From contig CAWJGT010000003.1 in assembly GCA_963842525.1 (NCBI GenBank), forward strand, positions 1,152,001-1,216,000: a DNA stretch of 64,000 nucleotides. Direction: 5' to 3'. The notes under the pieces were generated by a model that did not search any database, was not told the DNA's origin, and saw only the letters and a list, made by a program, of their open reading frames with translations. This document shows positions 55,820 to 60,650 of the stretch, piece after piece (position 1 is the stretch's first letter; the number at the start of each line of letters is the position of its first letter). The translations under genes were made by a program, and so were the position numbers. The stretch is from an uncultured Holophagales bacterium (lineage in GTDB: Bacteria > Acidobacteriota > Thermoanaerobaculia > Multivoradales > UBA5704).

Positions 55820-57174
55820 TCACCATGCGGGGGTGGTGCTGGTGGAGCTGGCGGGCGTCGTAGGGCTGGCGGGCGTCGTAGGGCTGGCGGGCGTCGTAGG
55901 GCTGGCGGGCGTCGTAGGGCTGGCAGGCGTCGAGGGTCTGGTGGGCGCGGGCGCCGGCGTGCTCGGCGCGGGGGGGACGGCGCAGGCATGGTCAGCCTCT
56001 GGCTCAGGTCGCCGCGGCGCGCTGTTTCGGCCTGCGTCTGCGCGGCGAGGCGCGCGCGGCGCTCTTCCGTGGCGATGCGCATCTCGGCTTCGGGGTTGAG
56101 GGTGTTGACGCGGATGCGGTCGACGGCGCCCTGGCCCGCGAGGCGTTCGAGGGGCAGATAATCGGTCTTGAACACCAGCTCCACGGAGGAGCTCAGGTCG
56201 AGGTCGGTGTTCATCTCTTCCGTGGTCTGGGTGCGCTGGGTGGATACATAGCCGATGGTGTTCTTGACCTTCACATCCATACCCCAGAAGCTGGCCTTGG
56301 CTTCTGCTTCGTTGCGCAGGTCGAAGCTGCTGCCCCGATCGTCGGCCGCGGCGCTGCGGGTGTCGATATGGAAGCGCATGGCGGCATGCAGACGGCCGCT
56401 CTCGATGACGATCCGCTGCAGGCCGAGCATGACCATGGTGGAGAGCATCTGTTGGCGGTTGCGCGCGAGCGCGCCGCGGGCCATCGGCACCAGGCTTTCC
56501 GGATCGCCGCCGGGCAGCGCATCCTGGGGCCCCAGGCCGAGCGCCGTGCGCAACGCCCCTTCGGCAGGCATGGAGGCGCCGGGGCGCAGGCGCAGCCGCG
56601 TCCCGGCATCGCGCTCCTCCTGCTCCTCCGGCGTCAGGGGCTGGCCGGGCTCGGCGAACGGATCGCTCTCTCCTTCGACCACGAAGGCGCCGGGAAAGCG
56701 TTCGGCGAGCCAGCCGCGCGCGCCGTTCACGCCGACGTTGGCATCGGCGAACCCCTCGGTGGAGGCCGCCACGTTGCGGATCAGCTCCACGTACGAGCTG
56801 AGCTGCTGCTGGTTGGTGTCCACCAGAGCCTTGAACACGCCGGTGATCAGCTCGGTGACGAAGCGTGGAAAGGAGACCGCGTTGAGGATCTCCCGCGTGG
56901 TGCCGGCCACACGCTGGGGCGCGACGCCGCTGAATTCGCTGCCGGCGCTCTGGGCGCGGGCGAGCGCCGGGCGTGGTGGTGCCGTGGCAGTGGCGGCGTC
57001 GGACTCGGCGGCGAGCGCCAGCGCGGCGGAGCCGATCCTGACCAATCCCTGGGCGAGCTCGCGGCGCGTCGACGGATCGAGGCCCTGGAAGCCCGTGCTG
57101 GCGGTGAGCAGATCACGGATCGCGCCGCGCACCTGGGCAGGCGGTTGCTCCGGCCGTTCCAGGACGCCGGCCAT
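55820..57174 (-). CDS. Unknown family B protein 3 (homopolymer frameshift near 55970)
   Basis: VSFPRFV..RQQMLSTMVMLGLQRIVI..VELVFKTDYLPLE. The duplicate copy has G8 versus G7 here, restoring a TPASPT tail that ends at TGA 55820. Confidence 0.8.
55847..55933. repeat. 18-bp tandem repeat (coding TPASPT)
   Basis: GCTGGCGGGCGTCGTAGG, about 4.5 copies. Confidence 0.9.
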
Positions 57175-57178
57175 GGCG

Positions 57179-58114
57179 TCACCCGGCCAGGGCGGCCCAG
57201 GGGGATTCGCCGCGCGCCGGCGGCGGCGCAGGGGCTGCCGATTCGCCGAGAGCGAGCGAGGCCTCCAGCCAATCCACCGCCGCCGGGATTACAGGGTGAT
57301 TGAGGCTCACCAGCGGTTTGCCGCCCTGCTCCAGGAAGGGAGCGGCCTCGGCGAGCCAGGACAGGAGCGTCATGCCCGCCTGGCCGCGGCGCACGTGCAG
57401 CGCAGGATCCATGCGCGGCCGGCGCGCCAGGCGCGCGACCGCGGCCACCACGCCCCAGACGTCGCGCGCGCCGAAGGCGCTTTTCACGGCGCGGTGGGCG
57501 AGGATCGCCAGGGCCTGCTTGACGGCCGCCAGGACCTCCTGCGCCAGGAACACGGTGAGCCCGCTGCTGACGCGCACCAGGTTGGCCAGCAGCCGCTGGG
57601 CCGCGGCGCGCACCCGCGCCTGCTGCGCCACGCCGCCCCAATCCGAATTGCTGGCCTGCTCGTCGAGCTTGTAGAGGGCCTCGCACAGGTCGATCAGCCG
57701 GTCTTCGAATTCCCGGTTGGGCGGCTGCTCCGAGTGATCGATCCCACCCGGTGCGCCGAACAGCGCGGAGAAGAACCCGCGCCGCTCGGCTTCGTTCGCC
57801 CGCTCGTTGCGCTGCCGCCAGAGCTCCTGCAGGAGACGAGCCGCCTCGCCCAGGTCGACGGCAAGGCTGCCGCTGCGGGCGAGCCGCGTCAGCGCCTCCG
57901 CGGCGCCGAGCACGTCCGCATCCTCCAGCTCGGAGGCCAGATAGAGCGTGGCAATGGCGCGGAGCTGCGCCTGGTCCACGACCGCGCCGGCGGACGGCGG
58001 CAATTCGATGGCATCGATCTCGTCGAGGGCGAATGCAACGGTGTGCGCCTGGGCGACGAGCTGCTCGGCGCGCTGCAGGGCGATCTCGAGGGCGGGATCG
58101 AGGTCGCGGGTCAT
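57179..58114 (-). CDS. Unknown family A protein 2
   Basis: ATGA coupling to the upstream gene; EAERR, NREF and FGARDVW motifs shared with 61749..63470. Confidence 0.85.
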   Translation of the reverse strand: MTRDLDPALEIALQRAEQLVAQAHTVAFALDEIDAIELPPSAGAVVDQAQLRAIATLYLASELEDADVLGAAEALTRLARSGSLAVDLGEAARLLQELWRQRNERANEAERRGFFSALFGAPGGIDHSEQPPNREFEDRLIDLCEALYKLDEQASNSDWGGVAQQARVRAAAQRLLANLVRVSSGLTVFLAQEVLAAVKQALAILAHRAVKSAFGARDVWGVVAAVARLARRPRMDPALHVRRGQAGMTLLSWLAEAAPFLEQGGKPLVSLNHPVIPAAVDWLEASLALGESAAPAPPPARGESPWAALAG

Positions 58115-59331: not shown

Positions 59332-59351
59332 GATGTTTCACCTCCCTGCGG

Positions 59352-60650
59352 TCATTGGGCCGGCGTTCCCGGGGGGGCCGCCGGGGCGGCGCCGCCCGGC
59401 GCCTGCGGGGTGCGCGCCGAAGGCACCACGTTGGGATCGACCGGCTGCGAATGGCCCTGGATGGCGGCGATCATGCCGGGCGTCGCCATCTTTTCGAGCG
59501 GCAGGTAGTCGCTCTTGAAATTGACTTCCACGTTGCCGGCGAGCTGGGCGCGCGTCGTCAGCGTGGATTCGGAGGCTTCCGAAGCCGTGCTCATGGCGGT
59601 CATGATCGGTTTTTCGGCGTACTTGTACTTGCCCTTGGAGTAGTAGTCCGAATTCCATTCGGATTGGAGGCCCTTGTCCTTGTCCCACGAGCTCTTGCCA
59701 GTCCTCGTGCCGCCCCTGTCCCACTCTCCCTCGCGGTCCCGCGTCCGGGCGATCTGTCCGTCCTCGGTTGCATAGTCGTAGGCGGTGGCGCTGCGCGCGA
59801 GCTTGCGGGCGTCGCGGGCCTGGAAGTCGTACAGGATCTTGGCCTGGATCCGCCCGTCGGTGACCACGATGCGGTTGATGCCCATGAGCACCAGGCTTGC
59901 CAGGAGCTGCTGGCGCTGGCGCGCGAGCTGTGTGCGCGCGGCGGTGACCAGCGCGAGCTCCGCGGTCTCGTCCGACAGGTCCATGCTCTTCAATTGGCCG
60001 TCCTGGAAATCCAGCGCACCATTGACCCGGCGCAACGCGGCGCTGTCGTCCACACCGTCGCGCAGCCGCAGGCGCGGGCCGGGGCTGTCGGAAAAATCAT
60101 CCGTGCCGATCTCGAACAGGTCGGGGAATTTTTCCACCATGTGGTCGCGCCCCTGGTTGGGTGTGACATTGTCCTCGCGGAAGCTCTCCAGGGACTTGGC
60201 CACCTGCCCGACCATGTTGGAATAGGCCTCCATCTGCTCGATCGAGGACTTGACGATGGCATGGAAAACCCCTTCGATCAGGCCGGCGACGAAGGTCGGG
60301 AAGTTGACCTGCTTCAGGAACAGGTCGGCGACCGCGGCGCCTTCGCGCGCCGCGCCGGCCGCGAAATCCTTATTGCCGATATCCTCGACGGCCTCCCAGC
60401 CCTTCTCGGACGTAGCATCCACTTCGCCGGCGAGGGCGCGGGCGGGCGGCGCGCCGGCTCCGCCTGGCAAGGTGTTGCCGGGGATGCCTTCCGGCGCCGC
60501 CAGGTAGTCGGCGATCAGCGCCGTGTCGTGAGCGATCTGCTGCTGCTGGGCCGCGGGCAGGCTGGCAAACGCGGATGACCGGGTGAGCAGCGTCTTGACG
60601 GCCTGGCGGACCTCGGGTCGCGGCGTCGGCGCGGGAGCGGTGGCAGGCAT
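59352..60650 (-). CDS. Unknown family B protein 1
   Basis: VNFPTFV..RQQLLASLVLMGINRIVVTDG..VEVNFKSDYLPLEKMATP; GAGG RBS. Confidence 0.88.
   Translation of the reverse strand: MPATAPAPTPRPEVRQAVKTLLTRSSAFASLPAAQQQQIAHDTALIADYLAAPEGIPGNTLPGGAGAPPARALAGEVDATSEKGWEAVEDIGNKDFAAGAAREGAAVADLFLKQVNFPTFVAGLIEGVFHAIVKSSIEQMEAYSNMVGQVAKSLESFREDNVTPNQGRDHMVEKFPDLFEIGTDDFSDSPGPRLRLRDGVDDSAALRRVNGALDFQDGQLKSMDLSDETAELALVTAARTQLARQRQQLLASLVLMGINRIVVTDGRIQAKILYDFQARDARKLARSATAYDYATEDGQIARTRDREGEWDRGGTRTGKSSWDKDKGLQSEWNSDYYSKGKYKYAEKPIMTAMSTASEASESTLTTRAQLAGNVEVNFKSDYLPLEKMATPGMIAAIQGHSQPVDPNVVPSARTPQAPGGAAPAAPPGTPAQ

Follow-up and report, generated by a model that had tools for sequence, protein, structure and literature searches.

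Pore formers of the aerolysin and anthrax protective-antigen types, and gasdermins with their proteases, are licensed by proteolysis. Ring proteins such as the phi29-type lower collar, FliF, and SpoIIIAG each give a long β-hairpin to a giant barrel or tube. Cyanobactin maturation sets combine the S8 proteases PatA/PatG with a PatF-type ABBA prenyltransferase, and PspF-type sigma-54 circuits use an activator with AAA+ and helix-turn-helix (HTH) domains only, which is controlled by a partner protein. Here, we describe a gene cassette found in a 64,000-nucleotide (nt) stretch of DNA from an uncultured Holophagales bacterium (NCBI GenBank assembly GCA_963842525.1, contig CAWJGT010000003.1, forward-strand positions 1,152,001 to 1,216,000; "the window" refers to this whole stretch). 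The cassette encodes a family of paralogous proteins, the B proteins, each with a long arm that is predicted to be a β-hairpin. By analogy, it most resembles the protease-licensed β-hairpin pore formers in its logic and the long-hairpin ring proteins in its architecture. We class it as a new kind of system, since no clear membership in any of these families emerged; a full-text literature search, whose coverage leaves out subscription journals, returned no description of it.

A preliminary description of the interval between the start of the B1 hairpin (nt 59882) and the end of the B3 hairpin (nt 56161) had reported three paralogs. The three minus-strand open reading frames (ORFs) of the window, B1, B2, and B3, are genuine paralogs by sequence comparison, B1 being 45% identical to B2 and 35% to B3, but the family has a fourth copy, B4, that lies outside the window. 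When the whole genome was searched with B2, exactly four places were matched (E values of 2.1e-262, 6.7e-72, 3.3e-33, and 1.8e-28); B1 and B3 were recovered at 6.7e-72 and 1.8e-28, respectively. The proteins are 350 to 440 amino acids (aa) long. Each paralog best matches its own ortholog elsewhere, i.e., the four form separate ortholog groups, and B2 is 50 to 91% identical to its orthologs in the ortholog alignment. The two conserved strands that bracket the segment of interest and the helical block that precedes it were described correctly: all quoted motifs and strings are exact in the sequence, including GINRIVVTDGRIQA, GINRIVVTDGTINA, and GLQRIVIESGRLHA; VEVNFKSDYLPLE, VRVNFKSDYLPLE, and VELVFKTDYLPLE; V(N/D/S)FPxFV; and SVSVSYGGWMSPWDASASF and AEAKASFWGMDVKVKNTIGY. 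F122, F125, and L129 of the B2 helical block are invariant among 74 diverse sequences and belong to a helix spanning residues 122 to 156 in the AlphaFold2 model.

Structure models were generated with AlphaFold2 for B2 (mixed-paralog alignment of 74 sequences; mean predicted local distance difference test score, pLDDT, of 71.7) and B3 (38 orthologs; mean pLDDT of 65.8). Both models have a common layout: an N-terminal helical hairpin, a low-confidence linker, a helical body with the FPxFV helix, a small hairpin followed by a long helix, strands flanking a low-confidence stretch, and short C-terminal helices. Each B protein consists of an N-terminal helical hairpin, a flexible linker, a helical body with the invariant FPxFV helix, and a C-terminal two-stranded β-arm with 33 to 54 residues per strand.

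Five lines of evidence, drawn from modeling and sequence comparison, support the view that the segment between the conserved strands (the spacer) is a long β-hairpin. The models place strands at residues 276–295 and 344–365 of B2 and at residues 266–274, 287–295, 298–306, and 319–327 of B3. Helices or a compact domain, the folds that the preliminary description had named as speaking against its proposal, were not seen in the segment, which was modeled as strands with low confidence in the middle. Turn-forming residues are concentrated where the apex of such a hairpin is expected. When residue positions were counted in 101 of 150 diverse representatives, those with both bracketing motifs, 78 of their 101 spacer Trp fell into the 0.5–0.6 bin of relative position, and Gly (182) and Pro (28) peaked in the same bin. 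The arm apex of B2, B3, and B4 is a conserved Gly/Trp/Pro turn with the motifs YGGW-x-SP, GPWG, and (E/Q)WG, respectively, while the B1 apex is Tyr-rich; a central Trp is present in 68/80 B2, 62/63 B3, and 37/37 B4 orthologs, and in only 9/77 of those of B1.

In an antiparallel hairpin, cross-strand neighbors lie on one face, and the hydrophobicity profile is therefore mirror-symmetric about the turn. The best mirror axis was found at position 320.5 in B2, 296.5 in B3, and 256.5 in B4, next to W319, W297, and W254, respectively; this result carries weight because the axis coincides with the Trp in all three paralogs. Spacer lengths point in the same direction. In 80 loci, the B2 spacer measures 83, 85, 87, or 89 residues (1, 31, 46, and 2 loci, respectively) and never an even number; such steps of two residues are expected if each strand gains or loses one residue at once. 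The B3 spacer has 77 residues in all 63 orthologs with both motifs, and orthologs of B4 and B1 range from 68 to 76 and from 102 to 130 residues.

The segment had been called variable. This is true of the comparison among paralogs; within an ortholog group, the length is nearly fixed and the arms are as conserved as the core, the fifth line of evidence for a hairpin. Column identity is 0.67 to 0.79 in the first and last thirds of the spacer, with the highest value in the last third of the B2 arm, compared to 0.63 to 0.70 in the helical core, 0.43 to 0.59 in the linker, and 0.41 to 0.60 in the tip third.

The B family is large and nameless. At least 2424 relatives of B2 were found at E ≤ 0.001 among 8000 candidates scored, and all of those named by their source are "hypothetical." A HMMER scan of 1.84 billion cluster representatives yielded 1382 matches at E ≤ 1e-3, 213 of them at E ≤ 1e-30; the family comprises at least 1382 clusters at 50% identity. 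B1 to B4 and three further cassette proteins, A1, A2, and D, are without a name, a Pfam model, or a recognizable fold. No Pfam, NCBIfam, PADLOC, or PHROGs match at E ≤ 0.01 was obtained for B1 to B3, A1, A2, or C (the remaining protein of this part of the cassette, considered below), B4 and D had no match in Pfam or NCBIfam, and single-protein and profile searches of PDB sequences with B, A1, C, and D gave nothing below E = 0.04. In a relaxed Pfam scan, DUF6683 was matched by 15/74 B members (best E of 3.3e-4), the match in the window's B2 spanning just 36 N-terminal residues (13 to 48), and HlyE by 2/74 (best E of 0.0072). Relaxed scans of other ortholog sets gave noise only for A1 and weak IPT/TIG matches in 4/28 D orthologs. 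An Atlas assignment of B2 to DUF2589 (0.78) was under the threshold of the tool and was discarded.

To delineate the cassette, we used a one-genome-per-species profile scan that returned 480 stretches encoding relatives (these are not genomes, since the patterns match several paralogs), of which the best 80 were analyzed. These loci come from Pseudomonadota, Acidobacteriota, Cyanobacteria, Chloroflexota, Planctomycetota, Gemmatimonadota, Actinomycetota, Bacteroidota, and Armatimonadota. Culturable strains of Sphingomonas and Paraburkholderia are among the carriers. The full order is sigma-54 activator, DUF3467, C70, B4, D, S8, A1, C, B1, B2, A2, B3. From C70 to B3, this order is constant and on a single strand in the 80 loci, the shorter gene lists being loci clipped by contig ends or by the 10-kb flank. 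By tblastn, B genes were matched in all 80 loci, D in 65, and C70 in 58 (for A1, A2, C, and S8, see Table 1), and many of the misses are likewise due to loci shortened by contig ends. In the window, the start ATG of A2 overlaps the stop codon of B2 as ATGA. Among cassette proteins, we found no signal-peptide–like N terminus and no convincing transmembrane helix; 19-residue hydropathy windows above 1.6 were limited to single borderline ones in A1, A2, C, and C70 (1.66 to 1.91).

None of 60 relatives of the bacterium (5 from the same genus, 31 from the same family, and 24 from the same order) has a B homolog at E ≤ 1e-20, so the cassette is an acquired accessory module here. Yet B2 shares 77% identity with a protein from Desulfobulbus and more than 50% with proteins of Cyanobacteria and Chloroflexota. 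Judging by these comparisons, the cassette, of about 12 genes and present in at least nine phyla, is horizontally mobile among distant bacteria. Among sequencing runs, no RNA data set was found; the only matches were soil-metagenome contigs with 5 to 7% of the words.

Protein C is a probable, distant ABBA-type prenyltransferase. Weak, sub-threshold matches to Trp_DMAT were present in 17/28 C orthologs (best E of 3.1e-4), other families being matched in at most three, and the Atlas neighbors of C carry Trp_DMAT, PTase_Orf2, or DUF5838 (scores of 0.94 to 0.95). As a reference for hhalign, we used four proteins above the Trp_DMAT cutoff from 401 Actinomycetota genomes. The C profile aligned collinearly with these true Trp_DMAT proteins over 306 columns at 23% identity (P = 0.018). 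A profile search for C homologs returned unannotated orthologs only. From these alignments, C probably has the ABBA fold.

We tentatively propose that the cassette proteins build a hairpin assembly, licensed by proteases and perhaps by prenylation, which would either make a tube or enter a membrane; as a whole chain, this is our preferred reading but less likely than not. B1 to B4 would be four distinct structural subunits of a self-contained mobile cassette under sigma-54 control, with the arms as the working part. After induction, the subunits may line up side by side so that their arms join in one sheet, tube, or barrel. The B3 arm would embed its amphipathic end, rich in Ser, Thr, and Ala, in the membrane, and the polar arms of B1, B2, and B4 would be the soluble part. 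The probable ABBA-type prenyltransferase C may lipidate the apex Trp (Tyr in B1), and the S8 and C70 proteases may process the subunits and so license assembly. The role could be to kill or lyse the producer, to release cell contents, or to attack a neighbor after lysis. A more specific version, in which the cassette is a membrane-breaching machine acting from inside the cell, a prenylated tip Trp drives the hairpin into the membrane, and the proteases together with a sensorless activator time the event, we consider unlikely.

The membrane-embedded role proposed for B3 draws on the composition of its arms. Within 16 residues on each side of the apex, residues on opposite faces read GAVNMFSR versus SSETRDQG on one arm (mean Kyte-Doolittle hydropathy of +0.38 and −2.07) and AAVNIYSE versus SKQTGVTR on the other (+0.51 and −1.22). 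The two-faced stretch covers ~14 residues on either side of the apex, and B3 is the sole paralog with two-faced arms near the apex. Distant B3-type proteins, too, have Ser/Thr/Ala-alternating arms around G-P-W. The preliminary description had attributed an alternating pattern to all three paralogs of the window and called the hairpins typical of β-pore formers. To test this, the middle of each spacer was scored for its period-2 hydrophobic moment and set against 2000 shuffled sequences. The observed alternation was reached by 0.33 to 0.41 of shuffles for B1, 0.32 to 0.62 for B2, 0.23 to 0.64 for B4, and 0.08 to 0.14 for B3. The long β-hairpin itself is supported for the family; the pore-former signature is supported for B3 only, the arms of B1, B2, and B4 being polar and alternating no more than expected by chance.

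These numbers and a series of others weigh against the proposed assembly. Alternation in the B1, B2, and B4 arms is not above that of shuffled sequence, and the B3 fraction is suggestive at most. In B2 and B4, the two faces differ by just 0.17 to 0.97, and none of B1, B2, and B4 has two-faced arms next to the apex. Their central parts are polar, with 22 to 35% charged residues; at the B1 tip, Asp, Tyr, Gly, and Lys are abundant. The median spacers of B1, B2, B3, and B4 (108.5, 87, 77, and 69 residues) are unequal and unsuited to one common barrel. The hairpin middle was predicted with a pLDDT of merely 29 to 49 in both models, and the mirror correlations are individually modest (r of 0.43 to 0.48, reached by 0.11 to 0.21 of shuffles), the single symmetry tests being weak overall (0.07 to 0.21). 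The prenyltransferase and the proteases are tied to the B proteins by gene neighborhood alone. For C, the window's own protein has no Pfam match at E ≤ 0.01, the Trp_DMAT model gave none at E ≤ 10 in this genome (control genomes were also silent), and the hhalign probability for the alignment with Trp_DMAT was just 2.6%. PADLOC defense models, which include gasdermin sets, gave 0 families at E ≤ 0.01 for B1, B2, B3, A1, A2, and C. Structure searches were equally unrevealing: Foldseek of the B2 model against the PDB had no row at E ≤ 1e-3; VIA against 48,161 chains had best Z scores of 4.9 (B2 model) and 7.8 (B3 model) that involved helices only, with Z ≤ 4.6 in a second look; and the best E values in the viral database BFVD (8.2e-3 for the B2 model and 2.2e-2 for the B3 model) were below significance. 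The CAMP factor, SPECT, VirB5, and CelTOS rows returned by VIA were inside the stated noise range of the tool. Since the B1, B2, and B4 arms are polar and nonalternating and arm lengths are unequal, a uniform transmembrane barrel of all four B proteins is unlikely; a set in which B3 alone enters the membrane while the other three stay soluble is possible.

Part of the same evidence can be read as a soluble cytoplasmic cage, lattice, or filament, in which the arms are intersubunit straps and no membrane is involved. In capsid- or vault-type shells, extended loops and arms tie subunits together, and such an assembly would account for the polar, charged arms of B1, B2, and B4, for the lack of a signal peptide or clear transmembrane segment in cassette proteins, and for the strong conservation of polar arm residues (0.79 in the last third of the B2 spacer), which fits protein-protein contacts. 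The fixed set of four B and two A paralogs also suggests a defined hetero-assembly. However, the arm of B3 has two faces and abounds in Ser, Thr, and Ala, the conserved apex Trp together with a probable prenyltransferase in the cassette points to a lipid interface, and no shell or filament fold was recognized; we regard a purely soluble assembly as unlikely. Still less likely, in our estimate very improbable, is that the spacer is a disordered low-complexity linker between two strands of a globular domain. The low pLDDT of its middle, its polar, Ser/Thr-rich, and charged composition, and shuffle-level alternation in three of the four paralogs are what such a linker would produce, but a linker would not be expected to keep a fixed length in each ortholog group, to vary in steps of two in B2, to be conserved in its arms at least as well as the core, or to hold the apex turn in position with the mirror axis on the apex Trp in three paralogs.

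The enzymes of the cassette allow yet another interpretation, that the B proteins are pro-protein substrates. Trp or Tyr of the exposed hairpin or spacer would be prenylated and S8 and C70 would cut the protein, as in cyanobactin maturation, to yield either a released peptide that carries the modification or a fragment in active form. The S8 protease, whose PatA/PatG match is sub-threshold, co-occurs with a probable ABBA prenyltransferase and a papain-like protease; the tip third of the spacer is its least conserved part (0.41 to 0.60) except for the Trp/Tyr turn, and the tip, predicted at low confidence, may be accessible. Yet the helical bodies of the B proteins far exceed known leader regions, and the fixed spacer lengths and conserved arms are unlike hypervariable core peptides. 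The match of S8 to the PatA/PatG NCBIfam model (E of 8.7e-25, 87.5 bits) lies far under the cutoff of 421, and its best NCBIfam match is to mycosin, also under the cutoff. Neither the 80 loci nor a downstream scan of 37 of them showed a conserved neighboring gene for a cyclase, a transporter, or another step of a peptide pathway. We consider a substrate role of this kind distinctly unlikely.

Set against β-barrel pore formers, the licensed hairpin assembly that we favor shares several features with them: the B subunit has a long hairpin with an aromatic/Gly turn, protease genes are in the operon, the B3 arms alternate Ser/Thr/Ala with hydrophobic residues, and the B proteins lack a transmembrane helix and are predicted to be soluble. 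The differences are that the B body is helical without a match to a pore-former fold, that three of four arms are polar and the lengths unequal, and that the cassette comes with no export signal, no conserved transporter, and no PADLOC match. Unlike in ClyA-type α pore formers, the B hairpin is near the C terminus and is not flanked by long return helices; SmhA appeared in the Foldseek rows of the B2 model at E values of 2.1 to 2.5. The combination of a helical or small domain with a very long hairpin is shared with the phi29-type collar, FliF, and SpoIIIAG. Three collar or lower-collar proteins ranked 4, 9, and 12 in the BFVD search with the B2 model (E of 0.027 to 0.23, template modeling score at most 0.24), and the top PDB row was a FliF-containing model (E of 6.7e-3, below significance, template modeling score at most 0.25). 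In contrast, the B3 model had no collar protein in its top 50, and the cassette is without phage genes. The lower-collar lead, not having been reproduced with B3, is kept as a resemblance only.

The likeness to cyanobactin sets lies in the pairing of an S8 protease with a probable ABBA prenyltransferase and in the conserved Trp/Tyr of the predicted exposed turn, whereas the candidate substrates would be four conserved B proteins of 350 to 440 aa and the S8 match to PatA/PatG is far below cutoff. The regulator resembles PspF. The activator, 309 aa long and conserved upstream, has a sigma-54 interaction domain, a lid, and a Fis-type HTH and lacks a sensory domain; unlike in the PspF circuit, the PspF model was matched below cutoff (228 bits versus 443.55) and no PspA-like protein was recognized. 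Control of the activator probably depends on a partner protein.

The coordinates of the features are collected in Table 1. The activator and DUF3467 genes were at the same upstream position in 3/4 other genomes examined, a fifth stretch of only 2.4 kb being left out; DUF3467 was matched in 0/80 loci by tblastn because the 10-kb flank concealed the two upstream genes. The C70 protein is papain-like and C39-like, and its C-terminal ~350 aa include a Gly-rich hydrophobic stretch and have no family match; in its counterparts elsewhere, the open frame across the match is 899 to 1544 aa long. Downstream of B3, no gene is conserved (103 ORFs in 37 loci), defense-like or mobile genes being only occasional. 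In 2/37 loci, both from Rhodobacterales, rpoN lies directly downstream of B3 (L030:13730-14965 and L034:13782-15053).

Table 1. Coordinates of cassette features. Positions are those of the window unless given on locus L007.
Feature	Coordinates	Strand	Description
B1	59352..60659	-	435 aa; helical body and longest hairpin of the set
B1 hairpin	residues 260-384 = nt 59508-59882	-	polar tip, rich in Tyr, Asp, Gly
B2	58111..59331	-	406 aa; most conserved paralog
B2 conserved helix block V-x-FPxFV-x-x-LI-x-x-VF-x-A-I-V	58918..58974	-	residues 120-138
Equivalent helix blocks	B1, nt 60252-60308; B3, nt 56821-56877	-	F, P, F, V, L invariant across paralogs
B2 hairpin	residues 267-368 = nt 58228-58533	-	apex YGGW, W319 = nt 58375-58377
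B3, B-like part	55855..57174	-	residues 1-440 of a 668-aa ORF
B3 hairpin	residues 251-338 = nt 56161-56424	-	apex FWG, W297 = nt 56284-56286
B3 3′ tail	55742..56067	-	18-nt tandem array at 55847-55947; C7 run at 55970-55976
B4	L007:3979-5043	-	fourth paralog, from genome search; ~2 kb beyond the right end of the window
A1	61749..63470	-	573 aa; A2 paralog at 28% identity; in 79/80 loci
A2	57179..58117	-	312 aa; second paralog family; in 80/80 loci
C	60675..61721	-	348 aa; probable distant ABBA-type aromatic prenyltransferase; in 77/80 loci
S8 subtilase, 3′ part	63500..64000; gene L007:1500-3380	-	Pfam Peptidase_S8, E 1.7e-37; in 67/80 loci
C70 protein	L007:5065-8319	-	1084 aa; conserved N-terminal domain, two AvrRpt2-like papain domains
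Sigma-54 activator and DUF3467 protein	L007:8316-9797		upstream of the C70 gene

A second copy of the B3 3′ end lies ~5.4 kb away, at 50323-50695, the two copies sharing stretches of 98, 58, and 55 nt with 100, 93, and 87% identity. Between them lie genes for a MaoC/RipB-like hydratase, a tetratricopeptide repeat (TPR) protein, and a CHAT protease, a PIN-like ORF, and a small ORF. The arrangement suggests that this block was inserted into the B3 end with target duplication; the hydratase, TPR, and CHAT genes do not occur beside the cassette in 80 other loci. TPR, CHAT, MaoC, and M50B genes were considered as cassette members and rejected, each being absent from all 80 loci by tblastn. The two copies of the B3 end also differ by one base in a C run, which has seven residues in B3 and eight (50597-50604) in the far copy. 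The B3-like frame of the far copy goes on into a Pro/Ala/Ser/Thr tail and then reaches a stop; in B3 as assembled, the frame turns Arg/Pro-rich (four PALRRP units from the tandem array) and has no stop before the MaoC gene. A frameshift or a sequencing error in the homopolymer is the probable origin of the resulting 668-aa "B3-MaoC fusion" ORF. Other long B3-type proteins (P0268, P0222, and others) have low-complexity Pro/Ala/Ser/Gly tails of 100 to 250 aa, and certain long B3-type records run on into unrelated-looking C-terminal sequence and could represent fusions or, like the ORF of this window, merged gene calls. The TPR gene carries a 125-nt direct repeat of 85% identity at its 5′ end (54861-55114), which doubles the N-terminal MRKLL...RPMVGR segment.

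A cassette so conserved and so mobile must confer something important on the bacteria that carry it. Its parts list combines Trp-tipped hairpins and sigma-54 control with two proteases and a probable aromatic prenyltransferase, and suggests that assembly takes place, under control, at or in a membrane. If the apex Trp is prenylated, large bacterial proteins would for the first time be shown to carry this Trp modification, a new departure for the field of bacterial protein lipidation. Should the hairpins form a barrel, the B proteins would represent a new family of pores or tubes with a helical body.

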